Counted from the first letter of the stretch, positions 10,049 to 45,404 are shown. The stretch: DNA of 64,000 nucleotides from Patescibacteria group bacterium (GCA_038061755.1 JBBTYN010000002.1:15312-79311), one strand, 5' to 3'. Numbers and translations are program-made. Notes: generated from the sequence alone by a model not told the origin.

Positions 10049-10121
10049 GCCCCTATAACTCAGATGGGAGAGAACTCCCGACAAGGGAGAGACAGTGGTT
10101 CAAATCCACTTAGGGGGACCA
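10049..10121 (+). tRNA. tRNA-like gene with encoded CCA; atypical (5-nt anticodon loop, G1-G72 mismatch); isotype not assignable
   Basis: GCCCCTA acceptor; D-arm TAACTCAGATGGGAGAGA; T-arm AGTGG-TTCAAAT-CCACT; ends ACCA. Anticodon arm reads CTCCC-GACAA-GGGAG (2 nt short). Confidence 0.45.
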
Positions 10122-11624: not shown

Positions 11625-13562
11625 TTATTTTACAACAACCCCTCCACCGACAGGAAACGCCACATCATCATTAAGCTTAGTATTAAGACCTATCTTGTTT
11701 ACTGCAACATCTACATTAGCAAAATCATCATGTCCAGTCAAAACTGCGTTATTTATAATTAGTGGAATCGTATCAACTTGAGAAAGTGAAGGCTTTAAAG
11801 AAATTTGAAAAGAAACGTTACGCGCTAGACTTATGATTCCAGAACCCTTTGGTATTCTGTCTACATTCCAAGTTATTTCCCTTGTAGAATCATTATATGT
11901 TAAATCCTCGCCGAGAGGAAAAATTGGCCCAACAAAAGTTGTCCATAAAGGAATGGTAGCTTTTATTTGCGCTTTCGAAATACTATTGGCAGTATTAGAA
12001 ATAGTCCACATAACAGTATAAGTGGTCGTTTGTTCGGCTTTTGGGGGTATCGGACCAGTATTAGTAAAAGATCCAGAATAATAAAGTGCCTTCCCAAAAA
12101 AACCAACATCTGAGATTATGCGAACAATTGCTCCATTTGAATTTTTAAGTTCATTTATAGCGGAACCTTCCACTGCCTGATTGCCAAAAATACTTACATC
12201 TAAGTTGGTTGTTGGGTTATTTAACATTCCACGAGATGCAGAAAATAAAGAAAGCGTGGAAACAGAAAATGAAACAGAACCAGAATCACCTGGGTTCACT
12301 TCTTTTAATTGGCTTTGAGAATTTTTATCCCAAGTAATTATATCGCTGGATGAATCATAAAAACCTTGTGAAACAAGTACGGTATCACGATTAAAAGCAT
12401 TTCCAGAAATTTTTGCACTTATCTTTAAATCACCTATCTTCGTATCTAAATTATTTAAATAACGAATTTCTGCCATTATTGGTGTCTTTGCGTCTACCGT
12501 ATATTCGTTTTGAGATATGCCATGTATAAAAATATTAGCTTCAATAAAAGGTTTTTTAATTAAAACAATATCCTTTATAGAATTAAAAATAACATCAATA
12601 GTAGACTTATCCGTATCAGACTGCGAGCCACTTGAAATATTAAATGTTTTTTCATCTCCATCAAAAACATCAATCATCTTGCCAGTTATAATAATATTAC
12701 GCTCTGCTCCAGGAGCAATATCACCCAAATCCCAAACATTGTTGCCAAAAGAAGGCGCTGGCACAGATTTTTTAAAAGTAAACCCAAATGGATAATCAAC
12801 CTTAACAAGAACTTTAGAAATTGCTTTAGTAGCGTTCAATGTAGCTTTTACGTTTAAGGTAATTTCTTGATTTGGACTTATTGAAATAGGAGCATCTACT
12901 GAAAGATTTATCGGCGTGGAAGTTATATTTACATTAAAAAGTTTTTCTTTTACGAAAATAGCATTAGACCCCGCTACTCGATATTCAAGAGTTACTTTTA
13001 TTGGACGAATACTTCCTTGTTCTCCAAAAAGTATTAATTTTACATTTTCATTACGAGTTGCTCCAGCTGGAATTTCTCCGAGTGAGGTGCGAAAATGTTC
13101 GGTGTTAGAAGACAAATCTACAGCTGAACTTTTAGGATATTCCATAACTAGATCTACTAAATCTAATGTGGAATTATTTCTATTTACAATCCCTACAACA
13201 AATGAAAGCTCTTCACCTCCGGCTGTAAAATTATTTCCAAGAATAGAAATATCAATATTGTTATTAGAAACAGCATTCCCACCAATAAAAAAAACATAAG
13301 TGGCATAACCCAAAGTTAAAACAAAAAAAATTATTGAAAAAATAAAAAATTTCTTAAATCTAGATGTTTTCATAAAAAATTTATCTTCAGCATCAGTATT
13401 AAATTCAACTTTTTCTTTTGTCTTCCAAGAATCCAAGGCTTCATTTTTATATAAATGAGAAAATACGTCTCGGTGCTCTATTTTGGTCTTATAATTCTTA
13501 CTAAAAAGCTTACTTTTTAAATCTTCAAGCCTATTCAACTTATTCATATCATCTAACGACAT
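11625..13562 (-). CDS. hypothetical N-terminally anchored extracellular protein (645 aa)
   Basis: Single TM helix (FFIFSIIFFVLTLGYATYVFF), then long beta-rich Asn/Ser/Thr-rich ectodomain. No catalytic motif recognised. Confidence 0.4.
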   Translation of the reverse strand: MSLDDMNKLNRLEDLKSKLFSKNYKTKIEHRDVFSHLYKNEALDSWKTKEKVEFNTDAEDKFFMKTSRFKKFFIFSIIFFVLTLGYATYVFFIGGNAVSNNNIDISILGNNFTAGGEELSFVVGIVNRNNSTLDLVDLVMEYPKSSAVDLSSNTEHFRTSLGEIPAGATRNENVKLILFGEQGSIRPIKVTLEYRVAGSNAIFVKEKLFNVNITSTPINLSVDAPISISPNQEITLNVKATLNATKAISKVLVKVDYPFGFTFKKSVPAPSFGNNVWDLGDIAPGAERNIIITGKMIDVFDGDEKTFNISSGSQSDTDKSTIDVIFNSIKDIVLIKKPFIEANIFIHGISQNEYTVDAKTPIMAEIRYLNNLDTKIGDLKISAKISGNAFNRDTVLVSQGFYDSSSDIITWDKNSQSQLKEVNPGDSGSVSFSVSTLSLFSASRGMLNNPTTNLDVSIFGNQAVEGSAINELKNSNGAIVRIISDVGFFGKALYYSGSFTNTGPIPPKAEQTTTYTVMWTISNTANSISKAQIKATIPLWTTFVGPIFPLGEDLTYNDSTREITWNVDRIPKGSGIISLARNVSFQISLKPSLSQVDTIPLIINNAVLTGHDDFANVDVAVNKIGLNTKLNDDVAFPVGGGVVVK

Positions 13563-14190: not shown

Positions 14191-17100
14191 TTATCTTTTC
14201 TCAATTTTTACCTTAAAAACTAACTCATCTATTTTTATCTCTTGCCATGAGTTTATCGAAGGGTCTTGTCCATCATTTTCTTTAAATTCTATTTTGGAAA
14301 CTAGCACTGTCTTTTTCATGTCATTTTCAAATTTTTGAATTAATTTTTTACCTGCATCATTGGTTTCGAAAACAATTGAGATAACATGACTTGGAGTAAG
14401 ACCAATCTTTTTTCTCATATCCTGCAAAGCACGCACAAGCTCGCGATAATCTCCTTCTTGTTTTAAATCTTTTGTAATATCTGTATCGAGACTTACTTTA
14501 TTAATGCCCATTTTTATTTTTAAAATATAAACAATATTTTTGATATTTAATTCATTTTTTATTATCTCAATATATTGGTCAGACAATTTTTCAGCAATAA
14601 TTTCTAGCTTATTTAATGGTTGACGAACTTTAATACCAGCTTTCTGTCGAGCTTCCAAACCAAGGGTTACAACACTTCTAACTGTTTCCATCTTCTCTAA
14701 AACTTTCGGTTCAAAAAACGAAAAAATTTTAAATTTTTTCGTTGGCCAACTCGCCAAATGCACACTCTCTCTGTCATCTTCATTCTTTAATCGTAGCCAA
14801 ATATTTTCTGAAGTAAATGGTGCAAAAGGGGCTAAAAGTTTTGTAAGAGTTTTTAGCACAAAATATAAAGTTTCTTTTGCTTCTTTTTCTCCATTCTTAA
14901 TTCTGTCGCGAGAACGACGCAAATACCACGTAGAAAGATCTCCAATAAAATCTTTTATTGCTCTGACTGGCTCAAGCAACTTATAATCATCCATTTTTTT
15001 TGTGGATTCACTAATTAATTCGTCTAGTCGCGCCAAAATCCATTTATCTAAAATATTTTTAGAATTTGGCTGATTATTTGTCTCTAAATTTTTATCTCTG
15101 TAAAGCTCGTAAAAAATAAGTACATTATAAAGCAAACCAAAAACTTGTTGATGAAGTAAGGCAACAGTTTTTTCATCAAAATTTTTAGATTCTCCTGGCT
15201 GATTGACCGAATACATCCAAAGACGAAGAGTATCAACACCATATTTATCCATTGCTTCCCATGGATCAACAATATTGCCGAGAGATTTAGACATTTTCTT
15301 GCCTACAGCATCCATCAAGTGCCCGAGACAAATTACATTTTTGTATGCCTTATTTCTCCCCATAAGTATTCCAACGGCATGCAAGGTATAAAACCACCCG
15401 CGAGTCTGATCTATCGCTTCTGAAATAAAATCTGCAGGATAATTAATTTTTTTAACTGAAAATGGATAATGATCTTGCGCAAATGGCATACACCCAGAAT
15501 CAAACCAAACGTCCATCACCTCTTTGGTGCGTGTTAATTTTCCGTCGCAACTACAAACAAGATTAATTTCATCAATATAAGGTTTATGTAGATCCATCTG
15601 ACCACCACTATTTCTAGGCAACTGTAAAAAACCACATTGAAAAACTTCTGCATTCTGAATAACTGGATATTTAGTATTTAAATTATTTAATTCTTGCTTT
15701 ATACTTAAAGCTTCATAAGAAGACAACAAAAGACGAATTGGATATTCATGAGATATAATCAAAATATTTTTTCCAGAATATTTTTGCTCTAAATCTTGTA
15801 GAACATAAATCATCCTTTTTCGAACATCTTCATCTGTTTCTTTAGATATTACTACTTCAGACTCTCGTAATCCCTTGTTTATAATAACTTGATCTTTAGT
15901 AAATCCAAAAGTATTAGCTATAATTTCTGCTGTTTGTTTTGTTCTGGTAAAATTTGAAGATATAATAACATCTGGCTTGAATTTTAAGCTTTTTGACATT
16001 AACCTGACTTGTTCTCTACCTTCTTCTGTTAAAGCATCATTATCCTCACCAGGATTAAAACTCTCCACATTTTTTATATTAGCAAGAGAACCTCCATGTC
16101 GCATCACAAAATATTTATTTCCTGACTTTTTTGTTTTATTTTTTAGGTCTTCAATACTTCCAATAACATCAATTTTTTTACAAGACTCACAGATCCAAAC
16201 TGGAAGCGGGGTACCCCAATATCGCTCACGAGAAATTGCCCAATCTTTTATCTCCCTTAACCATTCACCAAAACGTCCGTCACGAATATGCGCCGGTTCC
16301 CATTTTATTCCTTTATTCTCTTCTATCATCTTCGCTTTTATTTTTGAATCGGAAACTTTTATATACCAAGAATCTCGAGCATAATAGATAAGCGCCGTAT
16401 GGCAACGCCAACAATGAGGATATGAGTGTTCATATTTTTCTTTTTTAAATAAAAGTCCCCTATGCGCTAAATCTTTTATCACGTCTACAGCCACATCTTC
16501 ATCTCGTACAAATCTGCCTTCAAACATCCCTGTACCTAATAAAAATTTTCCATCAAGCCCGACAATGTGATGCTTTGGCAAACCAATCTTTGTCCCAAGT
16601 TCAAAATCATCCTGTCCATACATTACTGCTGTATGCACAACTCCCGTGCCGTCTTCAGTCGTCACAAAATCCGCTCCGTAAACCTTAAAAGCTTTTTTTA
16701 ATTTATATTTCTCGCTTTCAGAAATTGTATTTTGAAGATAAGGATAAAGTGGTTCGTATTCTAAACCGATTAAATCTTTACCTTTAATTTCTTTAACTAT
16801 TTTATATTCTCCGTCTATTGCAGAAAGTCTTTCTTTAGCTAAAATTAAAAATTCTTTTTCTATTTTTATTTTTATATAAATAATATCTTTTCCTACAGCC
16901 AAAGCAACATTTCCAGGCAAAGTCCACGGAGTTGTCGTCCAAGCAAGAATATAAGTACTGGTGGAAATGTTACTTTTGCAGGGTGTCTCGCAGGCTGACG
17001 AGCCGAGAGGCAGCGCTGTGTCAGCAGACACAGACAGCGACCCTGCAGAAGTAACATTTCCGCCAGTTACTCGAAACTTCACATACACTGACAAATCTTT

Positions 17101-17718
17101 CACATCTTCATATCCTTGCGCAAGTTCGTGCGAAGATAAAACCGTGCCACAGCGTGGACACCAAGGCACTACTTTATAATCTTTATAAAGTAAATTTTGT
17201 TCATTTATTTTTTTTACAACATTCCAAACAGATTCAATGTAATCATTATGATAAGTGACATATGCATTTTCTTGATCCACCCAATATCCAATCCGATGGG
17301 TAAACTTATTCCAAATATCTAAATATTCCCAGACACTTTCTTTACATTCTTGATTAAATTTCGCTACACCATATTCTTCAATCGCTTTTTTAGAATTAAG
17401 CCCAAGCTTTTTTTCTACCTGCAATTCTACCGGTAATCCATGCGTATCCCATCCACCTTTTCGGCGAACATGAAAACCCTGCATAGTTTTATATCGAGGA
17501 ATTGCATCTTTAAATGCTCGAGCTTCCAAATGATGAATTCCCGGCTTGCCGTTCGCTGTCGGTGGACCTTCATAAAAAACAAACTCCCCTTTAGGTGAAT
17601 CTTTTTCTAGAGATTTTAAAAAAGTTTTATTTTCTTTCCAAAATTCTAAAATCCGCTCTTCGCGAAGAGCTGCATCACTTTTTTTGTTAGAATTTTCTTT
17701 CTGAACTTCCTTGGCCAT
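14191..17718 (-). CDS. ileS: Isoleucyl-tRNA synthetase carrying an inserted histidine-phosphatase-like domain
   Basis: HHLEAR (HIGH), WTTTPWTLPGN, KMSKSLGN. About 165-aa insert with RHG...SHE motifs between the zinc-knuckle region and DLHKPYID. Confidence 0.9.
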   Translation of the reverse strand: MAKEVQKENSNKKSDAALREERILEFWKENKTFLKSLEKDSPKGEFVFYEGPPTANGKPGIHHLEARAFKDAIPRYKTMQGFHVRRKGGWDTHGLPVELQVEKKLGLNSKKAIEEYGVAKFNQECKESVWEYLDIWNKFTHRIGYWVDQENAYVTYHNDYIESVWNVVKKINEQNLLYKDYKVVPWCPRCGTVLSSHELAQGYEDVKDLSVYVKFRVTGGNVTSAGSLSVSADTALPLGSSACETPCKSNISTSTYILAWTTTPWTLPGNVALAVGKDIIYIKIKIEKEFLILAKERLSAIDGEYKIVKEIKGKDLIGLEYEPLYPYLQNTISESEKYKLKKAFKVYGADFVTTEDGTGVVHTAVMYGQDDFELGTKIGLPKHHIVGLDGKFLLGTGMFEGRFVRDEDVAVDVIKDLAHRGLLFKKEKYEHSYPHCWRCHTALIYYARDSWYIKVSDSKIKAKMIEENKGIKWEPAHIRDGRFGEWLREIKDWAISRERYWGTPLPVWICESCKKIDVIGSIEDLKNKTKKSGNKYFVMRHGGSLANIKNVESFNPGEDNDALTEEGREQVRLMSKSLKFKPDVIISSNFTRTKQTAEIIANTFGFTKDQVIINKGLRESEVVISKETDEDVRKRMIYVLQDLEQKYSGKNILIISHEYPIRLLLSSYEALSIKQELNNLNTKYPVIQNAEVFQCGFLQLPRNSGGQMDLHKPYIDEINLVCSCDGKLTRTKEVMDVWFDSGCMPFAQDHYPFSVKKINYPADFISEAIDQTRGWFYTLHAVGILMGRNKAYKNVICLGHLMDAVGKKMSKSLGNIVDPWEAMDKYGVDTLRLWMYSVNQPGESKNFDEKTVALLHQQVFGLLYNVLIFYELYRDKNLETNNQPNSKNILDKWILARLDELISESTKKMDDYKLLEPVRAIKDFIGDLSTWYLRRSRDRIKNGEKEAKETLYFVLKTLTKLLAPFAPFTSENIWLRLKNEDDRESVHLASWPTKKFKIFSFFEPKVLEKMETVRSVVTLGLEARQKAGIKVRQPLNKLEIIAEKLSDQYIEIIKNELNIKNIVYILKIKMGINKVSLDTDITKDLKQEGDYRELVRALQDMRKKIGLTPSHVISIVFETNDAGKKLIQKFENDMKKTVLVSKIEFKENDGQDPSINSWQEIKIDELVFKVKIEKR

Positions 17719-17777: not shown

Positions 17778-17845
17778 GGAATAAATAATAAAAAGTTGAA
17801 AATTAGTATAGAATTGTTTATTATAAAAGTATGGAAGGACAACCA

Positions 17846-18121
17846 ATGAAAATAGAAGAAAAAGAGCTTATAAAAAAAGCAGCAATACAGTTTCCGGATG
17901 GAGAAATTTTAACTGGAAAAGGACACGATGAAATACTTGAACGTGACGAATGTTTAGACAAAATTTTTAGTACTCAATCTCTAGGTAAAAGAAGTGAGGG
18001 ATTCGTGACAAATAAAGGACGATTCGTATCTAGACAAGAAGCTGATGAAATTGCTTTCAAGGCTGGGCAAATTAAAAAACAAAGAGGGTGGCTCCAAAGC
18101 CAAGATTTAAATTTAGAATAA
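17846..18121 (+). CDS. hypothetical small protein
   Basis: SD GGAAGGA 6 nt upstream of ATG; charged, non-repetitive 91-aa product; no motif recognised. Confidence 0.4.
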   Translation: MKIEEKELIKKAAIQFPDGEILTGKGHDEILERDECLDKIFSTQSLGKRSEGFVTNKGRFVSRQEADEIAFKAGQIKKQRGWLQSQDLNLE

Positions 18122-18182
18122 AATTTAGATATAGTTACTCAGAATTATTGTATTATAAGTTGTGGCTGACCCTAATTATTAA

Positions 18183-18587
<405 letters not shown>

Positions 18588-18615
18588 AATTTATTTAAAA
18601 AACATGTTAAAAACC

Positions 18616-21600
18616 TTAATACGACACATCAAGGTTGTCCTCATTAGTTTTTAATGTCACTGCCACAAACCCCTGCTTTTTAGTTGTGGTAATATTCTTC
18701 CCAATTTTTTCTTTAATAATAGTTAAGTCAATAGCTTTTTTATAATTAAATGTATATTTTTCTACATTCTTAATTGTTATTTTTGTATCTAAATCAGTCA
18801 GAACTCCTTTCTTCTCTTGCCAATCATAAACTATATTAGTATTTGGAACGATTGTAATAATACCATTTCTGATTATTTTATTGTAAGAGAATTTAAGTTT
18901 TGTATTATTTTCTCTTAATTTAATAAAAGGAATTATTGTTGTATTTCCAGAATTGTCCGTAAGAGTTACAGATGTTTTTGTAATAATTATTGTTGGATTT
19001 TTATCTATTGCATCTTGCGCAGAGAAAACTACATCTTTGGTATTTATATTAAACGTTACTTGTAATTCTGGAGGATTTATATCATATACTGTTATCCCGT
19101 CTAGTGTAGCTTGTAATGTTTTATCTATTGTTCCATCTCCATTTTGATCAATTTTTAAATCAGTGTTTAATACTTCAGAATCAGGAGTAATATTCATTGT
19201 GGCTATAGTAGAAGATGAGGAGGGAATACCTTGAAATGAAGTTGATTCTGAAATAGAATTACCTTCCTGTTTTTCCACGTCTAGAGAAAAGCTACCCTGT
19301 TGATATCCTTGCATTTTCAGAGTATAAGAAATACCGGTAGGTATTGAAATAAATTGTACATCCCCTATTTTTTCATAATTTACACCCGGAATTTCTTGTT
19401 TAATTTCTTTAGTTATTGGATCCTCGCCTGTGTATCTACCTTGGGTATCCATAATTCCTAATGTAAGTGGTGAATGAAGGGTATAATGGAGACGAGGTTT
19501 GTTAGAAATTAAAGTTGAAGTATCGTTAACTAAAACATTATTCGTATCAATAAAAGTAGAATCTTTAATTTCAGAATTTATAAAATCAAGAAGATCTGAT
19601 ACTTCTAAGATGTCTCGATGAACTCTGTCTGGAATATTTTCTTCATTATATTTATTTAAATCCACCCACCATCTTTCGACATTTGGAGATTGTGACATCC
19701 ATAAAGCGCTTGGTACCACTACAACTCCATCTCCATCAATAACTTTACGAGGTTTATAGGAAAGATATTCATTTCCAGAAAAATCAACATATGCTTTGTA
19801 ATCTAATCCCACGGTTGTTTCTTCTCCCCATCCTGCAACTTGAATCACTTTCGTATTTGGTGACGGCTGCCAATTGTCAAGTATTTGGTGCACAGCTTGT
19901 GCTTGATCATATAAAGTATTATTACCATTATTTGGATGTACAGTATCACTAAAAGATGGTTTAATTCTGCTTTCTTCTGTTCCTAAAATATAATTTTTTA
20001 AATCAACTTCATCTGAAATATTTAATCCGTATATTGATTTTTGTAAATTAAAAAATAATTTATTTTCAAAAGTAATCAAATTTTCTGGAACAAATGGAAC
20101 TTGAGGCATTGTAAAATAACCAGCTGATGGTAAAAGATTATAAACAGAAGACATATTTTCAGAAAGCTGTCTTGATCTATCTGCTCTCATGATAAAGCCA
20201 AAAGGACCAATCTCTGAGCCATGTAATAAATTAATCACCGCGTCAGGTGTACCTACTTGCGGAACTGCAATCAATATAACCTTATCAATTTTATCATAAA
20301 GAGGATTATTAGTATCTTTTAATTTCTGAATTAAAGCTTTCGCGACCAAGCCTCCATTGGAATGAGCAATAATCGTAACCTTTCCAGATTTAGAACTTTT
20401 TTGTAGATCTTCTAACTTTTTAAAAATAAAAGACTCAGAAAAGTTTTGAAACGTATTGTACGAAATATTACCGTTAAAACTAGCTCCATTTGTAATAATA
20501 TCACCAAGAGAAAGTCTCCAATCATATGGAATAAAATCATAATCTGCAATAATTTTTTCATCATTTTTCCACTTTTTTAGATCACTAATAAAAGATTGAT
20601 ACATATTGAAGCTATATACATCGTCAACGATTCCTGTTTCATCTAATTCTCCATTATTTTTTGTATCATCTTTAGTATGGATAGTACTATTGATACTTTT
20701 TCCTTGATTATCTAATGCAAGATCAGCGTGATTTGAATCATTATGAGATACCCACAATTCTTTATCACCAGAACCGTCTTGTTCATATAATCTAGAACCC
20801 ATTATCCCAGGCAGAAAAAGAACATTAGAAAAACAATCCACAGTATATACTGTAACTAAAGGCTTCATCACCACTGTTCCATTTTCACCCGCCAGAACGC
20901 AACCATAGTAACAATATGTGCCAGCTAGAGCATTTGCCGTCCCAGAAAAGTCAAAAGTTTTATAATAAATTGCTATTCTTCCACCTGCCCCTCCGATTAA
21001 TCCATAAGGCCAAGAACTATTTCCACCATTTGCTTGGAAAGCACCAGTGCCACTTATTTTATTTGCATTTACATAAATACTGCCTCCACTAACTCTATCA
21101 TAATTTCCATTTGCTGAAACAATACCATCATTTTTAAAAATATTGTCTACCACCAAACGAATCGCACCACCACCACGACGACTCTCTGTTCCACTCCCAA
21201 AGTCTACAGGCTCTGTATCTGAACCATAAACAGGTTTCGCCATGGCGCCTCCGCCTTTTCCGCCATAACTCGCCCCAGCTTCATAAAATGTATCTGGAGT
21301 TCCAAGACCATTAATATATCCTTTTCCATCAGCAGAAATTGAAGAACCATTTTCAATATTAAGATTTGAAACTTTTAAAGAAAGTATTTTCTCAGGAATT
21401 ACAGTAATATTTGAATTTCCTAAAATGGAAACTAGGTTTGCATTAATAATCTCCCCACCTGAAAGAGTAAGTGTTGAAGTTTTATCAAGAATAATATCTT
21501 TGGCTGTTATATTTGCCCCATCCTCCGATGAAACCTTTGCGCCATTAGAAATATTTATATTATTTAAATTAAACGGGCTATCATTTTTTTGAAAACGCCA

Positions 21601-22431
21601 AGAATTATTCAAATAAAGATCATTAGATGATTCATCAAAAAGACCCACTGTGCCATTTTCACTGCAAGTCATGCTCCAGCCATCATAACTGCCACAGCCT
21701 CCTTTGGCTTCTGCTTTACCAGTAAATGAAGAATTTTCATAATAGAGAGCTACTCGTCCCCCACCACCAGGACTTTTATAATAAGAACCAAACATAAGAC
21801 CCCCGCCATTAGCGCGCAATACTCCACTTCCTACAATTTTTTTAGCAGTCACATAAATACTGCCACCACTGCTTGAAACATTTCCACCAGAAGAGACAAT
21901 GCCATTATTAGTAAAAGTATCAGAAACTACTATACGCATAGCTCCTCCGCCATAACCCACTCCACCACTTCCTAAGTCAGTGGGCTTTGTAGCTGATCCA
22001 TAAGTTTTTGAATATGTAGCAGCACCATTACTAAGTCCGCCATAACTCGCGCCAATACTATCATTAGATGAAGCTCCAGGACCTTGATTAGCGCCATATC
22101 CTTTGTTGTCGGCTGAGATAGACGCGCCGAAATTGATGGTGAGATTAACGGCATTAATTTTTACTCCCTTAAAAGCGCTTGAAGAAAGAGGATCGCCTAA
22201 AAGAATCAGCGTCGCGTTATTGGTTATCGTTAAATTATTAAAAAAATATTCCCCAGCCGGCAAAGAAATGTTTGAACTTAAGACTACTTCAGCTTCGTCC
22301 GCATCGTTAATTCCATTTCCGTTTAAGTCTAGCGGAGAAACAGCAATAGCTTTCGGAACAAAAAATACCCCACAAAACGCAAAATACAAAACAAAAAACG
22401 AAAACAAGAGAATCGATTTTTGTGGACGCAT
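18616..22431 (-). CDS. Giant secreted protein (1271 aa) with Gly-rich beta-repeat N-terminal region and LCAT/PGAP1-like alpha/beta-hydrolase (lipase) domain
   Basis: Signal peptide MRPQKSILLFSFFVLYFAFCGVFFVPKAIA; FLPGIMGSRL ... YDWR ... IIAHSNGGLV (GxSxG) diagnostic of LCAT-like lipase family. Confidence 0.7.
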   Translation of the reverse strand: MRPQKSILLFSFFVLYFAFCGVFFVPKAIAVSPLDLNGNGINDADEAEVVLSSNISLPAGEYFFNNLTITNNATLILLGDPLSSSAFKGVKINAVNLTINFGASISADNKGYGANQGPGASSNDSIGASYGGLSNGAATYSKTYGSATKPTDLGSGGVGYGGGAMRIVVSDTFTNNGIVSSGGNVSSSGGSIYVTAKKIVGSGVLRANGGGLMFGSYYKSPGGGGRVALYYENSSFTGKAEAKGGCGSYDGWSMTCSENGTVGLFDESSNDLYLNNSWRFQKNDSPFNLNNINISNGAKVSSEDGANITAKDIILDKTSTLTLSGGEIINANLVSILGNSNITVIPEKILSLKVSNLNIENGSSISADGKGYINGLGTPDTFYEAGASYGGKGGGAMAKPVYGSDTEPVDFGSGTESRRGGGAIRLVVDNIFKNDGIVSANGNYDRVSGGSIYVNANKISGTGAFQANGGNSSWPYGLIGGAGGRIAIYYKTFDFSGTANALAGTYCYYGCVLAGENGTVVMKPLVTVYTVDCFSNVLFLPGIMGSRLYEQDGSGDKELWVSHNDSNHADLALDNQGKSINSTIHTKDDTKNNGELDETGIVDDVYSFNMYQSFISDLKKWKNDEKIIADYDFIPYDWRLSLGDIITNGASFNGNISYNTFQNFSESFIFKKLEDLQKSSKSGKVTIIAHSNGGLVAKALIQKLKDTNNPLYDKIDKVILIAVPQVGTPDAVINLLHGSEIGPFGFIMRADRSRQLSENMSSVYNLLPSAGYFTMPQVPFVPENLITFENKLFFNLQKSIYGLNISDEVDLKNYILGTEESRIKPSFSDTVHPNNGNNTLYDQAQAVHQILDNWQPSPNTKVIQVAGWGEETTVGLDYKAYVDFSGNEYLSYKPRKVIDGDGVVVVPSALWMSQSPNVERWWVDLNKYNEENIPDRVHRDILEVSDLLDFINSEIKDSTFIDTNNVLVNDTSTLISNKPRLHYTLHSPLTLGIMDTQGRYTGEDPITKEIKQEIPGVNYEKIGDVQFISIPTGISYTLKMQGYQQGSFSLDVEKQEGNSISESTSFQGIPSSSSTIATMNITPDSEVLNTDLKIDQNGDGTIDKTLQATLDGITVYDINPPELQVTFNINTKDVVFSAQDAIDKNPTIIITKTSVTLTDNSGNTTIIPFIKLRENNTKLKFSYNKIIRNGIITIVPNTNIVYDWQEKKGVLTDLDTKITIKNVEKYTFNYKKAIDLTIIKEKIGKNITTTKKQGFVAVTLKTNEDNLDVSY

Positions 22432-36375: not shown

Positions 36376-37695
36376 TTATCTAATTTCTTTCCATCTTTTT
36401 ATTTTCCATTTACCCCCGGGACCTGTTGTAAAAAGGGGTTGAGACAAGCCTATCGCATAGCTAACCTTAGCTTCATTCTGCATCGTTAGTCCATAGCCTG
36501 TGACCTCTCTAAGCGTCACATTATTTTGAAGTTGAATTTGTCCATGCGGAGCATAAAGCAATAGATTACCTGTGGCGGCATTTTGTACCTTAATAGCCAA
36601 ATTATTTCCTCCAGATTCAGCACTATTATTTCTAGACACAAGCATCACATAAGAATCAGTATTATCAGTGGATCCGAAATAATTTGAATTGTTTTGAAGA
36701 TAAATAAATCCTTTTGTGTCTCTATTCAATGGGTCATCTGCTATAATGACAACACTTTTGTTTCCTACGCTGTCATCAACTTTAATTGTAGCGCCTCCTT
36801 GCACCATAAGCTGTCCTTTTATCCAAATTGCTCCTGTTAAATTAAGAACCGCGTTATTTCCATCTACAAGCACATCACAATTTATCTTGGTGGGACCAAG
36901 CGTTACGCTAGTGGTAATATTATAAGGGCATGGAGACGAAATTGTATCTCCTGCGATAGCATCATTTTCCCATTGATCAAGTAAGTCATCTGAAATAGGC
37001 ATAATCCCATAAGGTTGATCTGCGCTGTTCGGATATTTAGTCCCTGTTACAGTAGTATCATTATCAATGTTTTGATAATAAGCATTTTGGTCAACCTTTG
37101 AATTAGTAATACTATTGGCATACATATTTACACTAGAGTGTATATTATCAATACTGCCAGAACTCCCTGCGGAAACAGCGCTGCCAGTCACAAAATTATG
37201 ATTTTTATCATCCCCGTCAATTGGTCCGTCTGAATAAATATTGCCAAAAACTCCGGAGTTATTTTTCATACGTACACCTCCAGGACCTATCTGCACAGCA
37301 AAACTAAAATTAAAACCATTAGTAGTAGTAATATCTTTTAGAACAGTCCGAAAATGACTGTTTACACTGGCTATTGAAGTAATTTCTTTTTCGTTGGCTC
37401 CGGTAACAGCAACGGTTGAGTTTGCGCTACTATTGTTAAGAGTTAGAGTTTTCGGAAAATTAATGGTGATATTATTTTTAATTCTAAAATATGCATCTTC
37501 ACTTCCCGATTCCGCTAAAAAATACGATTTTTTTGAATTTAAATTCATATTAGCATTTCTAAATTCCCGCACCGTTGGACTTACGAGTCCAGTGATTATT
37601 GCTAAAGAAATAAAAAGAAAAAATAAGACAGATATCAACATTGCCGCACCAGACTGATTATTAATTTTTCTTCTTGTTTGCTTTTTTATTTTCAT
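36376..37695 (-). CDS. PilX-like minor pilin / pilus-associated protein
   Basis: N-terminus QSGAAMLISVLFFLFISLAIITGLV resembles PilX; co-directional with pilin genes. Confidence 0.4.
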   Translation of the reverse strand: MKIKKQTRRKINNQSGAAMLISVLFFLFISLAIITGLVSPTVREFRNANMNLNSKKSYFLAESGSEDAYFRIKNNITINFPKTLTLNNSSANSTVAVTGANEKEITSIASVNSHFRTVLKDITTTNGFNFSFAVQIGPGGVRMKNNSGVFGNIYSDGPIDGDDKNHNFVTGSAVSAGSSGSIDNIHSSVNMYANSITNSKVDQNAYYQNIDNDTTVTGTKYPNSADQPYGIMPISDDLLDQWENDAIAGDTISSPCPYNITTSVTLGPTKINCDVLVDGNNAVLNLTGAIWIKGQLMVQGGATIKVDDSVGNKSVVIIADDPLNRDTKGFIYLQNNSNYFGSTDNTDSYVMLVSRNNSAESGGNNLAIKVQNAATGNLLLYAPHGQIQLQNNVTLREVTGYGLTMQNEAKVSYAIGLSQPLFTTGPGGKWKIKRWKEIR

Positions 37696-37703
37696 AATTT
37701 TAA

Positions 37704-37735
37704 ATTCGTAATTCGTAATTCGTAATTCGTAATTG
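37704..37735. repeat. Heptanucleotide tandem repeat (ATTCGTA)x4.5 immediately upstream of PilX-like gene start
   Basis: Four full ATTCGTA units plus partial; lies -9 to -40 relative to ATG at 37695 on minus strand. Confidence 0.9.
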
Positions 37736-37738
37736 ATT

Positions 37739-38299
37739 TTAATAACTGCCTCTTAAAACCACTGTGTCATAAAAATCTTGAATATTGCCTGATGGATCAT
37801 TAATGGATCTTAGAGTTAAAACTATTTTGACAGCTTTTCCTTTATTTGTATTTATTTGAGTAAAAGTAAGAGCCATAATATTAATGTTCGGGGTATTCAA
37901 GTTTCCTGTAAGCGTTCCATTTTCAAGAAGTTCAATATTGGAATCGGAAAGCAGGAACTCTACTGTTTTCGCCACTCCAGCATCATCTGTAGTTGCAAGA
38001 TTTAAATCGCTAGTACTAATTAAATTTATGCCATTTGCTTGCCTGATTTCTCGCGACATTCTTTCTATTATATTTCCACTTTGTACTAACTCAGCCTGTA
38101 TAGTAGTTTCTTTAAAAGATCTAGCCATTGTAATCATGGCATTAATCACCACTGAAGAAAGAACAGAAAAAAAAGCAATATAAAAAAGAAGTTCTAAAAC
38201 AGCATAGCCATGTTCATAAGACAGTGCTTTAGGCTCTGTCCAGACAGAACCTAAAGCACTGTCTAGTATTATTTTTTTATTTTTTTTTATCTTTATCAT
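37739..38299 (-). CDS. Type IV pilin-like protein with long leader
   Basis: G-YAVLELLFYIAFFSVL hydrophobic N-terminal pilin-like segment after 30-aa leader. Confidence 0.45.
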   Translation of the reverse strand: MIKIKKNKKIILDSALGSVWTEPKALSYEHGYAVLELLFYIAFFSVLSSVVINAMITMARSFKETTIQAELVQSGNIIERMSREIRQANGINLISTSDLNLATTDDAGVAKTVEFLLSDSNIELLENGTLTGNLNTPNINIMALTFTQINTNKGKAVKIVLTLRSINDPSGNIQDFYDTVVLRGSY

Positions 38300-38793
38300 G
38301 AAAAAATATCTATTATGTAAAATTGCAAGGTTTTAGTGATGGTCACTCCACCTTCTAGCCAGAAGACTGTTACTGTCACCAATTTTGCTTTAGGATCATC
38401 TGTGCCACTGCTCGCAATATCTTGAGTGTCATTATCGCGATTCACACCGGCGATAGTCACCCTGCGAGTAAAAATTCCCACAGTATTAGCTGTTTGAGAC
38501 AATGTCCAAGTACCGCCAGAAAATGTCGGATAATAATTTGTACTGACGGCTAAACTGGAAATATTGCTCCACGCATTATCTCGAAGTATCCGTACCGCTT
38601 CTGCTCCTTCTTCTAATAAAAATGTTGCCTGCGTTGTATGAAAAGCTTGACGAGAAACATAAATAGATTTTTGAGCAACGGCCGTCGCCGCTAGGATTGA
38701 AACAGTAATAATTGAAATAGCCACCAATATTTCGACCACCATAAACCCCGGATTTTTAATGATTTTTTTCATATTAGTCTGAACTAGCAACAC
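38296..38793 (-). CDS. Type IV prepilin / pseudopilin
   Basis: KNPG-FMVVEILVAISIIT prepilin peptidase site and N-methyl motif. Confidence 0.6.
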   Translation of the reverse strand: MLLVQTNMKKIIKNPGFMVVEILVAISIITVSILAATAVAQKSIYVSRQAFHTTQATFLLEEGAEAVRILRDNAWSNISSLAVSTNYYPTFSGGTWTLSQTANTVGIFTRRVTIAGVNRDNDTQDIASSGTDDPKAKLVTVTVFWLEGGVTITKTLQFYIIDIFS

Positions 38794-39241
38794 CTGTGGC
38801 AGAAATTGTAATAATTTTGGAATAGTTTATGGTGGAAATAGTCACAGTAGCAGTAGCACTTGGACTTCCTGAAAGACGATTGAAGAAAATTTCTCCTGAT
38901 GATCCACTCACAATACCAATAGTAACATTCGTAATACTTGCAGGAGTTACAATATCTATTATTTCATTGCCAACCGTGTCTGGTATAAAGCCTGTCCCTT
39001 TAAAAATTATAACTTTATCAGATTGGAAATGTACTCCGTAGGAAGACGAATTAAGTGATGAAAGCGTTTCTCCACGCGCTTTGTCTATGGATGACAATAT
39101 ATCAACAACTCCGCTTTTAAGCACTTGCATCTCTCTTGATTTTGAAAATTGTGGGATAACAACTGAAAAAATAACACCCAGCACAGCAACTACAATTAAT
39201 AATTCCAAAAAAGTTATCCCTCGTTTGTAATTTTTTTTCAT
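38774..39241 (-). CDS. Type IV prepilin (probable major pilin)
   Basis: KRG-ITFLELLIVVAVLGVI canonical class III signal. Confidence 0.7.
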   Translation of the reverse strand: MKKNYKRGITFLELLIVVAVLGVIFSVVIPQFSKSREMQVLKSGVVDILSSIDKARGETLSSLNSSSYGVHFQSDKVIIFKGTGFIPDTVGNEIIDIVTPASITNVTIGIVSGSSGEIFFNRLSGSPSATATVTISTINYSKIITISATGVASSD

Positions 39242-39255
39242 AAAATTAATTCATC

Positions 39256-40473
39256 TTAATTTATGCTACCCAAAATAGAATAAAGGGGCGAAATCATTGA
39301 GATAGCAAAAAATCCGACTCCAGCCCCAATAACAATCATCAGCAGTGGCTCAATAATAGTAGAAAGATTTTTAGTTTTATTTTCAACTTCCTCTTCGTAG
39401 AATAAAGCAATTTCAAGCAACATATCAGACAGTTTTCCTGTTTCTTCTCCGACCTCAATCATCTCTGACATCATTACAGGATACAAATCAAGATGAGTCT
39501 CAAATGCTTTGGAAAATGGCTCCCCTTTTTCTATCGCCAATTTTGCTTCATTTAAAACTTTTTTATAATAAATATTTTGTACCACATCTTCGGTTATTTC
39601 TATAGTTCGAGTTAAAGAAACACCAGAAATTAAAAGTGACGAAATGGTGCGTGCTGTGCGAGCAGTATTAAGTTCTATTGTTAAATTATTAACAACAGGA
39701 ATTTTTAAAATAACAAAATCAATATAGGGGGCCATAAATTTAGCGCGAAAAAGTGAAAAGATTCCAAAGGCTGCACAAAAGATGATTACAAAAGTTAGTA
39801 TTAAATTATTAGAGAAAAAATTACCAAAGAAAATAAGAATCTGAGTGGAAAAAGGCAAAGTCACGCCGAGCTCTTTGAATGTGCCTGCCAAAGTTGGCAC
39901 CACGAAAGCAAACATCAAAATGCCAATAATAACCATTGCCGACATAATTACCCCAGGGTAAATGAGCGCGCTCTTTATTTTCTTATTCAATGAATTAGAC
40001 TTTTCTAAATTTAGCCCGATGTCAGAGAGCGCTCCTGCAAGATTCCCAGACTCTTCTCCTGCGCGAATCATTGAAATAAAAAGTTTTGAAAAAACATCAG
40101 GAAATTTTGAAAGAGCAGTTGAAAAAGTTTCCCCGGAATTTATATCATTTGCTATAGAAGTTAAAATTTTACCGAGTTTAGGATTCTTTGTTTGTTTTTT
40201 TAAAACTGATAAGGCCCTAGAAAGTGAGAGTCCCGCTTTTATCATCCCGCTCAAATTTTTAGTCAAAATAATCTGTTCTCCAACCTTCACTTTTTCAAAA
40301 ATACTGGATAACGTTAAAAATTTATCAGTAAAATATTTATTTTTTTCTGAAATTGATAATGGAATAATGCCACGAGAACGCAACTCTCGAGCAAGAGCAT
40401 AGCGATCAGTAGCATCTAAAATGTTTTCTAAAATTTCACCTGTTTTTGATTTTGCGCTGTATATAAAAAGCAT
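39256..40473 (-). CDS. pilC: Type IV pilus assembly platform protein PilC (GspF family)
   Basis: Duplicated GspF domains, 3 TM segments, 405 aa. Confidence 0.85.
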   Translation of the reverse strand: MLFIYSAKSKTGEILENILDATDRYALARELRSRGIIPLSISEKNKYFTDKFLTLSSIFEKVKVGEQIILTKNLSGMIKAGLSLSRALSVLKKQTKNPKLGKILTSIANDINSGETFSTALSKFPDVFSKLFISMIRAGEESGNLAGALSDIGLNLEKSNSLNKKIKSALIYPGVIMSAMVIIGILMFAFVVPTLAGTFKELGVTLPFSTQILIFFGNFFSNNLILTFVIIFCAAFGIFSLFRAKFMAPYIDFVILKIPVVNNLTIELNTARTARTISSLLISGVSLTRTIEITEDVVQNIYYKKVLNEAKLAIEKGEPFSKAFETHLDLYPVMMSEMIEVGEETGKLSDMLLEIALFYEEEVENKTKNLSTIIEPLLMIVIGAGVGFFAISMISPLYSILGSIN

Positions 40474-40491
40474 AAAAAATTTAAAAAAAAA

Positions 40492-42249
40492 TTATTCCGA
40501 AACAACTCGGAATACTTCTTCTAAAGTGGTAACACCCAAGACTGCTTGAAAAACTCCATCTTCAATCATTGTCATCATCCCCTCAGCTTTAGCTTGCGCC
40601 TCCATATCATCTTGAGAACTTCCTTTAATAATCATTTCTTTAATAGTAGCTGTAACTTTTAACACTTCATGCATCCCAATACGACTTGAATATCCATCTT
40701 CAAATTCAGCGCTCTTTACTGCTTTATAAAAAGGAATTTTGTCCCAAGTATCTTTTGGGCCTATAACATTTTCAATTTTTAAAAAATCTAATACTCTATC
40801 TAAATCAACGATCTTTTCAAGATTTTTTACCTCGACAGAAGATAAGAAATATTTTTCCTTATTTGAGGTAAGCCTACGCACTAATCTTTGAGCAATAATT
40901 GTCTTCACTGTTGCTGTTATCAAGAAAGGTTCAACTCCCATATCTATAAGTCTTGGTATTGCTCCAGAGGCTGAGTTGGTGTGAATTGTAGAAAGAACTA
41001 AATGTCCAGTTAGAGAAGCATTTATTGCTAGTTCGGCTGTTTCTCCATCACGAATTTCTCCCACCATTACAATATCCGGATCTTGACGCAATAATGAACG
41101 AAGCCCATTGGCAAAAGTTAAACCAATCTCTGGTTTTACTTGTGTTTGATTAACTCTTGGCATTTGATATTCGATAGGGTCTTCCACTGTTGAAATATTC
41201 ACTTCTGGCCTATTTAAAATATCAAGCATCGTGTAGAGTGTAGTCGTCTTCCCGCTTCCTGTTGGGCCAGTGGCGAGCACCATGCCAGTTTTTTGTTTTA
41301 ATGAATTATGTATCCGTTCCAGTCCTTCACCATGAAAACCAAGCGTTTCTAAAGAAAAGCCATTAGTATTTTCTTTTAAGATTCTAATAACTGTCTTTTC
41401 TCCAAAAAAAGTCGGCAAAGTAGAAACACGAAAAGAAATTTTTTCTCCATTTTGTTCTATTTTAAATCTGCCGTCTTGAGGCAATCTTTTTTCATCCAGT
41501 TTTAAATTAGATAAAACTTTAATACGCGCCGTTATCCCAGAGCCGGCATTTTTTTCCAAGACCATCGCATCATGCAAAATTCCATCTATTCTATAACGCA
41601 CGGTAAGTTCTTTTTCCCCAGGCTCAATATGAATATCAGATGCATTTTGCAAAATTGCGTGAAAAATCAAAGAGTCTACTATTTTTACAACTGGAAGATC
41701 TTCCGCTATTTCTTTTAATTCTGCATCGGATTTTTCACCTTCTTCTCCAAAAGGAGCATTTATTGTAGCACTTTCTTTTTGTATAATATCCTGAAACTCT
41801 GATTTCAAACTTTGTCGATACTGAACCAAAACAGACCTAATAGAAATTGTGTCAGTCAGTCGAGGTAAAATTTTTAAACCAGAACGTTTTTTTATAAAAT
41901 CAATTACAGGCAAGTCATCAACATCAAGCATCGCTACTTCTAAACTATTCCCATTCTTCCCGCTTTTTTTGTAAGCGACAATATTGTAATTGCGCGCAAT
42001 CGGCTCAGGAATAATAGAAAGTACAGAAAAATCTATTTTTTGATTATTTAAATCAATGAACGGTATACCCAAAACAGAAGCTTCCATTCGCTTCAAATCT
42101 GTTTCAGATATTTTCCCATCGGAAAGTAAAATATCGCCAATTTTTTGTTTTTTAGTTTCAGCTTTTTTAAAAGCCTCTTCAAGGTCTGCCTTAGACACAA
42201 GCCCTTCATCTAAAATAACTTTTTTTAACTGTTCTTCATTGATTTGCAT
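40492..42249 (-). CDS. pilB: Type IV pilus assembly ATPase PilB (GspE family)
   Basis: GspE_N domain, Walker A ATGPTGSGKTTTLY, Asp box, His box. Confidence 0.9.
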   Translation of the reverse strand: MQINEEQLKKVILDEGLVSKADLEEAFKKAETKKQKIGDILLSDGKISETDLKRMEASVLGIPFIDLNNQKIDFSVLSIIPEPIARNYNIVAYKKSGKNGNSLEVAMLDVDDLPVIDFIKKRSGLKILPRLTDTISIRSVLVQYRQSLKSEFQDIIQKESATINAPFGEEGEKSDAELKEIAEDLPVVKIVDSLIFHAILQNASDIHIEPGEKELTVRYRIDGILHDAMVLEKNAGSGITARIKVLSNLKLDEKRLPQDGRFKIEQNGEKISFRVSTLPTFFGEKTVIRILKENTNGFSLETLGFHGEGLERIHNSLKQKTGMVLATGPTGSGKTTTLYTMLDILNRPEVNISTVEDPIEYQMPRVNQTQVKPEIGLTFANGLRSLLRQDPDIVMVGEIRDGETAELAINASLTGHLVLSTIHTNSASGAIPRLIDMGVEPFLITATVKTIIAQRLVRRLTSNKEKYFLSSVEVKNLEKIVDLDRVLDFLKIENVIGPKDTWDKIPFYKAVKSAEFEDGYSSRIGMHEVLKVTATIKEMIIKGSSQDDMEAQAKAEGMMTMIEDGVFQAVLGVTTLEEVFRVVSE

Positions 42250-42264
42250 TACAAATATAGTATA

Positions 42265-42298
42265 GCAAAAAAATCTCCCAAATGGGAGATTTTTTTGC
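42265..42298. terminator. Perfect palindromic bidirectional terminator-like hairpin
   Basis: GCAAAAAAATCTCCCA-AAT-GGGAGATTTTTTTGC, flanked by A/T tracts on both sides. Confidence 0.6.
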
Positions 42299-42315
42299 TA
42301 ATAATTAAAATTAAA

Positions 42316-43488: not shown

Positions 43489-43555
43489 TATTTTAATATT
43501 ATACCATTAAGATTACTAAAAAGGGTATAAAATTGAAATCTATACTGTGGATAAC

Positions 43556-43610
43556 GATACTAGCTGATACTAGCTAGATACTAGCTAGGACAGTCCTCGC
43601 TAGTGGTGTC
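43556..43610. repeat. REP-like palindromic element cluster A (tandem GATACTAGCT x3 plus palindrome CTAGCTAGGACAGTCCTCGCTAG)
   Basis: Read directly; homologous to 44283..44315 and 45337..45391. Confidence 0.8.
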
Positions 43611-44271: not shown

Positions 44272-44282
44272 CTATTTAATAT

Positions 44283-44344: not shown

Positions 44345-44394
44345 CCCAATGATAGTTTTAACAAAATCATCAGAAATGAAAATTTTTGGAGATA

Positions 44395-45391: not shown

Positions 45392-45404
45392 ACTTGCCAA
45401 CATC

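Follow-up and report, generated by a model that had tools for sequence, protein, structure and literature searches.

Secreted phospholipases that are encoded next to a small protective gene are known from type VI secretion systems (T6SS). These pairs, Tle1-5 with Tli, show tandem and orphan copies of the immunity gene and diverge rapidly. A lipase of the type VII secretion system (T7SS), TslA of Staphylococcus aureus, has tandem TilA immunity genes. For the PGAP1-like type VI lipase effector Tle4 (TplE, PA1510), whose gene lies beside its cognate protective gene, the structure of the complex with Tli4 is available (4R1D; PMC4832377). According to a preprint, a Tli immunity protein can also be required to activate its Tle. 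Here, we describe a gene in a stretch of 64,000 nucleotides (nt) of a Patescibacteria group bacterium (GCA_038061755.1, JBBTYN010000002.1:15312-79311); this whole stretch is called the window in the following. The gene encodes a protein of 1271 amino acids (aa) with a domain of the lecithin:cholesterol acyltransferase (LCAT) family and is followed by the gene of a 134-aa protein with four predicted transmembrane helices, which we regard as its partner. The positions of all features are given in Table 1.

Candidate phyla radiation (CPR) bacteria were reported to have no lipid synthesis and an enrichment in lysolipids, and the secretion of phospholipases against host envelopes was proposed for them (PMC11665869, PMC8080830). 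For Vamp_34_196 of Vampirococcus lugosii, a CPR bacterium without phospholipid synthesis, it was suggested that a secreted phospholipase disrupts the host membrane and thereby provides lipids (PMC8080830; reviewed in PMC11665869). Our locus resembles this proposal in the biological idea and differs from both papers in that an LCAT-fold giant protein, a beta-solenoid module and a four-helix partner are not described there. The original prediction, made from the DNA alone, had already suggested membrane-lipid acquisition or attack as the role of the lipase, an inference whose general idea was present in the CPR literature.

The organism is a Paceibacteria-type CPR bacterium from Hainich groundwater. 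An identical protein was found on at least nine contigs, one of them with 220 kb, and the contigs carrying it derive from Hainich groundwater assemblies. Its NCBI name (P0001 in our numbering) is 'MAG: alpha/beta hydrolase [Patescibacteria group bacterium]', where MAG denotes a metagenome-assembled genome. The gene is a single open reading frame (ORF) with ATG start, and a database search with its product gave 633 matching proteins. Given these matches and the identical copies, the features of the protein are far beyond chance. In a scan of one genome per GTDB species, relatives of the lipase were detected at 487 loci. Of the best 80, almost all bear a label of Nomura-, Zambryski-, Lloyd-, Kaiser-, Yonath-, Moran- or Magasanik-bacteria, or else of Paceibacterota.

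Judged by Pfam threshold, modelled fold and catalytic residues, the central domain is a member of the LCAT family. The Pfam family LCAT (PF02450), which comprises LCAT, lysosomal phospholipase A2 (LPLA2) and PDAT, matched with 47.5 bits (E 2e-12; curated cutoff 21), with aa 610-905 covering the profile positions 68-352 of 392, and nine further members of the lipase family also exceeded this threshold. The assignment to an LCAT-like lipase family, made in the original prediction, was confirmed by this match and by the fold described below, whereas its additional label PGAP1/DUF676 finds no support at the Pfam thresholds. PGAP1 (PF07819) reached 17.9 bits with a threshold of 24.3 and DUF676 (PF05057) 19.8 bits with a threshold of 20.3, both with short matches at the nucleophile elbow (aa 673-728). 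The match to DUF7379 was likewise confined to the elbow region and below cutoff; DUF900 was nominally above cutoff on a stretch of 60 residues. The NCBIfam search of the lipase found no family, and a single-sequence phmmer search against the PDB gave nothing. Profile searches of the PDB sequences reached Tle4 and lipases weakly. Tle4 (4r1d_A) was the first match (E 3e-4), over the FLPGIMG motif and the segment from elbow to cap; with sequence as the only input, no chain of LCAT or LPLA2 was a significant match (best E 0.066).

For aa 520-1271, a confident AlphaFold2 model was obtained from 29 sequences (predicted local distance difference test, pLDDT, 88.3; predicted template modelling score, pTM, 0.82). 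In the comparison of this model with the PDB by Foldseek, LPLA2 ranked first (4x92/4x97; E 3e-11 to 7e-11), with template modelling scores (TM-scores, normalised to the target) of 0.65-0.68. Human LCAT, with 5txf and 4xx1 (E 6e-9 to 2e-8) among its chains, was matched with E 6e-9 to 5e-7 and TM-scores of 0.57-0.64. The top 12 matches, over about 460 columns, were chains of LPLA2 or LCAT, except for rank 10, which was taken by Pseudomonas Tle4 (4r1d; E 7.6e-8; TM-score 0.40). All matches beyond these three proteins were at least thousand-fold weaker. Taken as a whole, the modelled fold thus resembles the alpha/beta-hydrolase core of LCAT and LPLA2 together with its accessory insertions (membrane-binding and cap).

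Conservation was examined in an alignment of 29 sequences, down to 32% identity. Invariant were Ser691, Gly900-Asp901, His938, Tyr636-Asp637-Trp638-Arg639, Phe539, Pro541 and Gly542. The motifs on which the original prediction was based could be located once each in the protein, FLPGIMGSRL at aa 539-548, YDWR at aa 636-639 and AHSNGG at aa 689-694; in addition, DGDG (aa 899-902) and HRDIL (aa 938-942) are present. In the model, Ser691 lies at a nucleophile elbow between the strand 166-171 and the helix 174-187 (model numbering). Asp901 and His938 follow later core strands, His938 the last one, which is the canonical order Ser-Asp-His. The strand of model residues 17-21 (aa 536-540) is located at the FLPGIMGSRL motif, which aligns with 'VIFIPGIMGTNL' of Tle4. 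As in alpha/beta-hydrolases in general, this region presumably contributes the oxyanion hole. The YDWR motif corresponds to 'PYDWR' of the LCAT family, and human LCAT reads 'APYDWRLEP' at this site.

The family profile was also aligned by hhalign with the mature human LCAT sequence (probability 95.6%, E 1.2e-8). This alignment pairs AHS691NGG with GHS181LGC and DGD901G with DGD345D ('EDGDDTV' in LCAT). The catalytic Ser181 of LCAT was labelled by a covalent inhibitor, with a numbering that agrees with the sequence used here (PMC6277198). The histidine is outside the hhalign block; by order and invariance, His938 would be the equivalent of LCAT His377. A catalytic triad, which the original prediction needs for its lipase, can be placed at Ser691/Asp901/His938: all three are invariant in the 29 sequences, and Ser and Asp align with Ser181 and Asp345 of LCAT. 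The protein is very probably a secreted serine hydrolase of the LCAT family with a working triad. An adhesin with a dead enzyme was considered as well and was rejected because of the invariant triad.

Compared with eukaryotic LCAT and LPLA2 (PLA2G15; PF02450), the domain passes the same Pfam threshold, has these proteins as best structural matches (TM-score 0.57-0.68) and shares the GxSxG nucleophile, the DGD acid and the His base in the same order as well as the PYDWR motif. In contrast to them, it is a bacterial (CPR) domain within a 1271-aa protein, between a beta-solenoid and two beta-sandwiches, shows a sequence identity of 13-16% only and has a dedicated four-helix partner gene. In place of their membrane-binding domain, it has an acidic, partly disordered segment. 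In a CPR bacterium, sterols or ceramide are unlikely as acceptors. Judged by sequence profile, Tle4 is the closest bacterial relative with a solved structure, with aligned segments FxPGIMG and HSxGG...LxPSxxY. It differs by its T6SS context, its lower TM-score of 0.40 and the Sec signal peptide of our protein. The lipase is closer to LPLA2/LCAT, and Tle4 is a remote relative at best. Identity with a Tle4-family T6SS effector was rejected, since the similarity is only remote and no T6SS genes (VgrG, PAAR, Hcp neighbourhood) were found within the 64-kb window.

Furthermore, the lipase gene and the four-helix gene form a near-universal two-gene unit. At a first look, a homologous ORF followed the lipase gene in four of five loci, in which all other neighbours were different. 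The pairing was then tested with hidden Markov models (HMMs) on genome loci, using the 67 lipase ORFs that are complete and followed by 500 nt or more. In the first pass, the partner was found in 58 of them on the same strand, starting -13 to +115 nt downstream. After one HMM iteration, eight of the remaining nine loci matched too (E 5e-5 to 3e-25), which gives 66 of 67. The exception (L047) has the partner at +414 nt, behind an apparently frameshifted lipase C-terminus. No terminator-like site was found in the 28-nt gap between lipase and partner in our window. The scan for promoters and terminators did not stand out from shuffled sequence (21 sites observed, 23.2 expected; 3 observed, 2.7 expected), so that the argument for co-transcription comes down to the gap free of terminators.

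In 14 of 69 loci, the partner gene has extra copies downstream. Several of these copies are interrupted by frameshifts, and birth-and-death dynamics are therefore suggested. There are one to four extra copies per locus, e.g. in L004, L005, L012 and L031. One genome contains two units of lipase and partner in tandem (L084 2304..9812). Four loci were sampled from the partner side. The lipase lies directly upstream of the partner in two of these (L091, L094), and the partner is an orphan in the other two. In one orphan locus (L093), AlaRS is encoded upstream, and the 6 kb upstream contain no remnant of the lipase. The other one (L092) has the gene order of the window, SHMT-SDR-Tmk-dUTPase-ArgRS-Pif1 ... 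IleRS-RecO, with a Pif1 of 86% identity. Here, the first 211 lipase codons remain, comprising the signal peptide and the first ~180 solenoid residues (65-70% identical to the window protein). The last eight lipase codons are present out of frame ('EDDLNVSY*' compared with 'EDNLDVSY*' in the window), and an intact partner gene lies 55 nt beyond the remnant. This locus represents a clean internal lipase deletion of ~3.2 kb with retained partner, in a MAG assembly in which a misassembly is possible. Its partner is 37% identical to that of the window, compared with 86% for Pif1; therefore, the partner is either fast-evolving or a different allele. A metagenome scan with a single partner sequence yielded five short loci: the lipase lies upstream in two, a C-terminal lipase fragment lies downstream in one, and the remaining two are uninformative. 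Direct neighbourhood, arrays in which copies decay, orphans and fast divergence together form the classic signature of immunity genes. Thus, lipase and partner show at gene level what characterizes effector-immunity pairs, i.e. adjacency, tandem and orphan copies and fast divergence.

The four transmembrane helices of the partner were predicted from hydropathy. Its family is characterized by a basic N-terminal end, a first outer loop with a Cys pair, conserved F74, W77, F80 and S122 and a basic C-terminal tail, the latter fitting a predicted topology with both termini inside. No Pfam family was detected in the 16 members scanned (best E 0.0014, in one of 16), and the PDB gave no match at E up to 10. 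The 123 database homologues are all unnamed CPR proteins; the partner of the window itself has the locus tag AAB623_00535. Almost no polar residues are conserved, which argues against an enzyme or a transporter. Lipocone/VanZ proteins are described as lipid-head-group enzymes with four transmembrane helices (PMC12419801). This identity was rejected for the partner, as no VanZ or related Pfam family was found at E up to 1 in the 16 members and the conserved set is just F74, W77, F80, S122 and the Cys pair. The four-helix proteins would be an undescribed family of candidate immunity proteins.

The original prediction of a signal peptide was supported. The N-terminus reads MRPQKS, followed by a hydrophobic stretch of 20 residues and PKAIA|VS, i.e. 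a basic n-region, a hydrophobic core and an AIA|VS site. Besides a buried strand near aa 718, this is the only strongly hydrophobic segment by hydropathy. In homologues, a site of AxA type is kept directly ahead of a conserved DLNxNG motif, and 57 of 67 family ORFs have the N-terminal hydrophobic segment; the remainder begin at contig edges. The call is a heuristic one from hydropathy, sequence and the sites of homologues, and Sec export of the lipase is predicted on good grounds.

The region between signal peptide and catalytic domain corresponds to the Gly-rich beta-repeat region of the original prediction. Its glycine content is 17% over the residues 31-520, and the two repeats, aa ~48-265 and ~312-520, are 39% identical (E 6e-29). 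The module starts with a dockerin/EF-hand-like DLNGNGINDADE loop. A further AlphaFold model (aa 28-535; pLDDT 91.8, pTM 0.89) shows an all-beta solenoid. No Pfam match was found for it, and none of the Foldseek matches in the PDB was significant (best E 0.03, TM-score at most 0.2); the weak matches are all beta-helix adhesins, polysaccharide lyases and tailspikes. In this respect it is similar to beta-helix adhesins and passengers such as Ag43, pertactin, the two-partner secretion (TPS) domains of EtpA/HMW1 and tapirins. Chlamydial Pmp repeats carry GGA[ILV]/FxxN, and the solenoid repeats contain GGGA[IM]R...F[TK]N[ND]G motifs which are reminiscent of them. An autotransporter or TPS substrate was rejected, since there is neither a beta-barrel nor a TpsB partner and the organism is presumably monoderm.

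By sequence comparison, the solenoid appears as a swappable module. Among the fetched loci it was found on 12 lipase ORFs only (nine distinct ones after merging of duplicate contigs); the remaining lipase ORFs have 760-1350 aa and unrelated N-termini without Pfam match. At 50-71% identity, the solenoid also occurs on proteins which lack the LCAT domain and bear other N-terminal heads. One head is a Pfam-less GxSxG domain with 'HSQGNFYAN', the other one is Zn-phospholipase-C-like with borderline scores (26.2 and 21.6 bits, cutoff 26.8). Three loci with such proteins have the order Y1_Tnp-like gene, small single-pass membrane protein, giant protein, 48-aa transmembrane ORF and rplJ-rplL. The single-pass protein directly upstream of the giant has 212 or 216 aa with the HSQG head and is an unrelated protein of 165 aa with the phospholipase-C-like head, which in these three loci looks like a swapping of head-specific partners. 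By analogy, such head-specific adjacent membrane proteins would support the interpretation of the lipase and its partner as a matched pair. The four-helix partner is absent next to the solenoid proteins with other heads. Therefore, it is the lipase domain, rather than the stalk, that it accompanies.

The C-terminal region consists of two beta-sandwiches, for which no Pfam family was found. The first one (aa ~979-1081) contains a conserved RLHxxLHSP, with H986, S987, P988 and G1046 invariant or nearly so. It is connected by a linker with DQNGDGTID, similar to a calcium-binding loop (aa 1095-1103), to the second one (aa ~1122-1270). The mean pairwise identity within the family is 46% for the catalytic domain, 41% for the first and 25% for the second beta-sandwich. 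The extreme C-terminus is swapped among homologues and can be a beta-sandwich ending in ...Y as in the window, a 'PxKF'-type domain (NCBI name, homologue P0017), a helical tail of the form '...DAQxLxDMLxxLLDN' or a transmembrane helix. Variants are found in the homologues P0088, P0007/P0016/P0017/P0031/P0008 and P0033/P0046/P0060/P0066. In P0088, the transmembrane helix is followed by a basic tail and would anchor the enzyme to the producer.

Taken together, these features suggest an exported phospholipase acting on foreign membranes, with a partner that protects the producer. We consider this the best overall explanation, with a probability of about one half. The enzyme, composed of several domains, would be exported via Sec by its Paceibacteria-type CPR producer and be located at the surface or outside the cell. 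After cleavage of the signal peptide, the solenoid of ~500 residues may act as stalk or adhesin and would bear the LCAT/LPLA2-fold serine hydrolase with the triad Ser691-Asp901-His938, followed by the two beta-sandwiches. The analogy with LCAT, LPLA2 and Tle4 suggests that the hydrolase forms an acyl-enzyme with an acyl chain of a glycerophospholipid. This chain would be released as fatty acid, leaving a lysophospholipid (phospholipase A activity), or possibly be passed to another acceptor. The target would be the membrane of a neighbouring or host cell. The 134-aa protein, presumably co-transcribed, would reside in the producer's own membrane and protect it in the manner of an immunity protein, so that both genes would form an effector/immunity-type unit conserved across the family. 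The sequences show the domain identities, the conservation of the triad, a predicted export signal and the pairing, arrays and orphans of the genes, whereas lipid substrate, target cell and protective role are inferred. A phospholipid substrate on a foreign membrane is slightly more likely than not; for immunity as the role of the partner, we regard the chances as even. By analogy with the Tli protein required for activation, a dual role of the partner as chaperone and immunity protein is conceivable. The proposed mechanism agrees with the published proposals on CPR lipids.

Several observations weigh against this explanation. The outer loops of the partner have ~15-20 residues, which is small for blocking an enzyme of 1200 aa, and in the Pfam and PDB searches it resembled neither Tli4 nor any known immunity protein. 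The covariation of the partner with the lipase sub-domains, determined in the style of a mirror tree, gave Spearman coefficients of 0.47, 0.43 and 0.23 and is confounded by phylogeny. The orphans are two of the four loci sampled from the partner side, both from MAG assemblies. Within the window, no machinery dedicated to the secretion or delivery of the lipase is apparent. The counterpart of LCAT's membrane-binding domain (aa ~549-635) is acidic and polar, with pLDDT below 50 for the model residues 72-88; therefore, direct docking of the catalytic domain to a membrane is not evident. Finally, the weaker Foldseek matches include the polyhydroxybutyrate (PHB) depolymerase PhaZ7 (E ~5e-3) and Bacillus-type lipases, i.e. 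the LCAT fold does not fix the substrate.

These last two points would also fit an ester substrate other than membrane lipids, such as polyhydroxyalkanoate, cutin-like polyesters or O-acetylated polysaccharide or peptidoglycan, with a resemblance to LCAT at fold level only. We regard this as very improbable. The only significant Foldseek matches are the phospholipid-acting LPLA2, LCAT and Tle4 (E 1e-11 to 1e-7, compared with 1e-3 or weaker for the others), the Pfam match is well above cutoff and includes the PYDWR motif, and one of the heads sharing the solenoid is Zn-phospholipase-C-like, although borderline (26.2 of 26.8 bits). A housekeeping enzyme of the envelope, without a part against other cells, would remodel the membrane or surface lipids of its own cell, for example by deacylation or reacylation or by processing of lipoproteins or lipoteichoic-type polymers, with the four-helix protein as substrate-presenting or regulatory subunit. 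The position of the gene among RecO, IleRS, Pif1 and ArgRS, the lack of mobile-element or secretion-system genes as neighbours and the wide occurrence in Paceibacteria-type genomes, with 487 loci in species representatives, are in line with such a role. It is nevertheless improbable: the lipase was lost in the close relative L092 and is thus dispensable, the N-terminal parts vary strongly and are modular, the flanking genes change from one lipase locus to another, and the solenoid, common to other secreted enzyme heads, makes the protein resemble polymorphic surface or effector proteins more than core metabolism.

It is more difficult to separate fighting from feeding. The enzyme might be a lipid-harvesting acyltransferase or phospholipase that supplies the CPR cell with fatty acids or lysolipids for its own membrane, with the four-helix protein as dock, acyl acceptor site or uptake partner. 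The chemistry would be the same as in the explanation preferred here, and the difference concerns the role of the partner only. LCAT and LPLA2 are natural transacylases, CPR bacteria were reported without lipid synthesis and rich in lysolipids, a near-universal pairing is expected of an obligate functional partner, and the C-terminal transmembrane anchor of P0088 suggests display on the producer's surface. We still consider harvesting rather unlikely, because the partner has no conserved polar or charged residues within the membrane, as would be expected if it were a transporter or enzyme. Moreover, tandem, decaying duplicates as well as an intact, fast-diverging partner that survives the deletion of its lipase would be unusual for a dock or transporter.

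Compared with the Tle/Tli and TslA/TilA pairs, the unit of foreign-membrane lipase and protective partner proposed here belongs to another enzyme subfamily, has a four-helix protein instead of a lipoprotein or soluble immunity fold and would work without a specialised secretion system. Tli4 is a soluble, periplasmic protein, whereas the CPR partner is a polytopic membrane protein without detectable similarity to it. The CPR producer differs from those of Tle and TslA in being ultra-small and presumably episymbiotic. Tentatively, and with less confidence than for the single locus, a lineage-wide effector/immunity-like module might be assumed for Paceibacteria-type CPR bacteria, with a Sec-exported LCAT-fold effector on interchangeable stalks, a four-helix immunity component and no specialised secretion system. 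The stripping of acyl chains from membranes of hosts or neighbours would then explain host damage as well as the lysolipid-rich, scavenged membranes reported for CPR bacteria, the four-helix protein would shield such a membrane in the producer itself, and the other heads on the solenoid, every one beside a membrane protein of its own, would belong to a polymorphic 'lipid-weapon' system.

The generic name alpha/beta hydrolase was given by NCBI, and secreted CPR phospholipases were discussed earlier. New relative to the NCBI annotation are the linkage with the four-helix partner, the arrays and orphans of the latter and the modularity of the solenoid. In the literature found, with incomplete coverage, no paper describes the LCAT-fold family, its solenoid module or the partner. 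The domain call as such is ordinary; the unit of lipase and partner bears on the way in which lipids are acquired or attacked by CPR bacteria. A large part of bacterial diversity belongs to Patescibacteria/CPR, which are reported to be without synthesis of fatty acids and phospholipids. The locus is a widespread and tractable candidate, with an intact LCAT-type active site and a strictly linked membrane partner of immunity-like genetics. If the proposed function is true, it would link genomic observations to the lysolipid enrichment in situ, add a new family of immunity proteins and show that effector/immunity logic works without T6SS or T7SS in ultra-small episymbionts of monoderm type. Should the protein be an ordinary esterase of the envelope instead, the finding shrinks to a correctly annotated alpha/beta hydrolase.

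Table 1 Positions of the lipase, its parts and further features (window coordinates unless another locus is named; -, minus strand)
Feature	Position	Strand	Remarks
Whole lipase ORF	18616..22431	-	signal peptide, beta-solenoid and LCAT-like hydrolase, then two beta-sandwiches
Predicted Sec signal peptide, aa 1-30	22342..22431	-	n-region R2/K5, h-region aa ~7-25, AIA|VS site
Gly-rich beta-solenoid module, aa 31-525	20857..22341	-	repeats of ~210 aa at aa ~48-265 and at aa ~312-520
LCAT/LPLA2-fold alpha/beta-hydrolase (lipase/acyltransferase) domain, aa 530-965	19537..20844	-	Pfam, model, Foldseek
First strand and FLPGIMGSRL, aa 539-548, presumed oxyanion-hole region	20815..20844	-	F539, P541, G542 invariant
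Y636-D637-W638-R639, LCAT-family 'PYDWR' motif	20515..20526	-	invariant in 29 sequences
Ser691, probable catalytic nucleophile, AHS691NGG (GxSxG)	20359..20361	-	invariant; codon checked
Asp901, probable catalytic acid, DGD901G	19729..19731	-	invariant G900-D901; codon checked
His938, probable catalytic base, VH938RDILE	19618..19620	-	invariant; codon checked
C-terminal all-beta region, aa 975-1271	18619..19509	-	secondary structure, pLDDT >85
Partner gene, 134-aa membrane protein, four predicted transmembrane helices	18183..18587	-	28 nt downstream of lipase
Lipase-deleted locus L092	5310..6423		GCA_028718635.1, contig JAQULK010000001.1
Solenoid giants with other heads	L088 3331..7789, L089 3502..7978, L090 3344..7600		three loci
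Type IV pilus-type cluster	36376..46121	-	~15 kb from lipase gene
PilB-like ATPase	40492..42249		in type IV pilus-type cluster
PilC-like platform protein	39256..40473		in type IV pilus-type cluster

The gene content of the window is that of a typical CPR housekeeping region. Among others, RecA, SSB, several aminoacyl-tRNA synthetases, RecO, Pif1, Tmk, SHMT, ComEC and RecJ as well as PGK, TIM, PilB/PilC, NusA, H+-PPase and CPSase are encoded, and the neighbours of the lipase include RecO, IleRS, Pif1 and ArgRS. With regard to the assumption of the original prediction that the organism lacks its own fatty-acid synthesis, no fab or pls genes were detected among the window ORFs of at least 150 aa, and a 64-kb window cannot speak for the whole genome. 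In the type IV pilus-type cluster, eight ORFs without Pfam match flank PilB/PilC (36376-39241 and 42316-46121), which are possibly pilins or other surface components.

The G+C content of the window has its minimum at 18001..20000 (0.282, compared with 0.32-0.40 elsewhere), a part that spans the C-terminal beta-sandwiches of the lipase and the partner gene. This may reflect a composition rich in Ile, Lys, Asn and Thr or a separate evolutionary history of this part of the unit. An ORF of 96 aa is located between the partner gene and IleRS on the opposite strand (17831..18121, +). For this ORF, a precomputed Pfam match to T4_Y16D (PF26092) is given in the identical contigs L001 and L002; in our own Pfam scan there was none at E up to 0.001. 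The IleRS itself (14191..17718, -; 1175 aa) carries a PGAM-like histidine phosphatase inserted in its catalytic core at aa ~537-700 (Pfam His_Phos_1, E 7.7e-20). As the same insertion occurs in L092 (1212 aa), L001 and L002, it is kept in this lineage.

A tRNA at 10049..10118 (+) was detected by Rfam (39.3 bits, cutoff 29) and not reported by ARAGORN. Two further ORFs encode probable surface proteins, one of 645 aa with a sub-threshold match to the DUF11 repeat (11625..13562, -; 23.3 bits, cutoff 24.6) and one of 437 aa with a Big_2 Ig-like domain (46919..48232, +). Furthermore, the match of an ORF of 204 aa (48316..48930, -) to the AbiEii nucleotidyltransferase toxin (E 3.4e-13) is confined to the initial ~50 positions of the profile; this ORF may be a truncated remnant of a toxin-antitoxin system.

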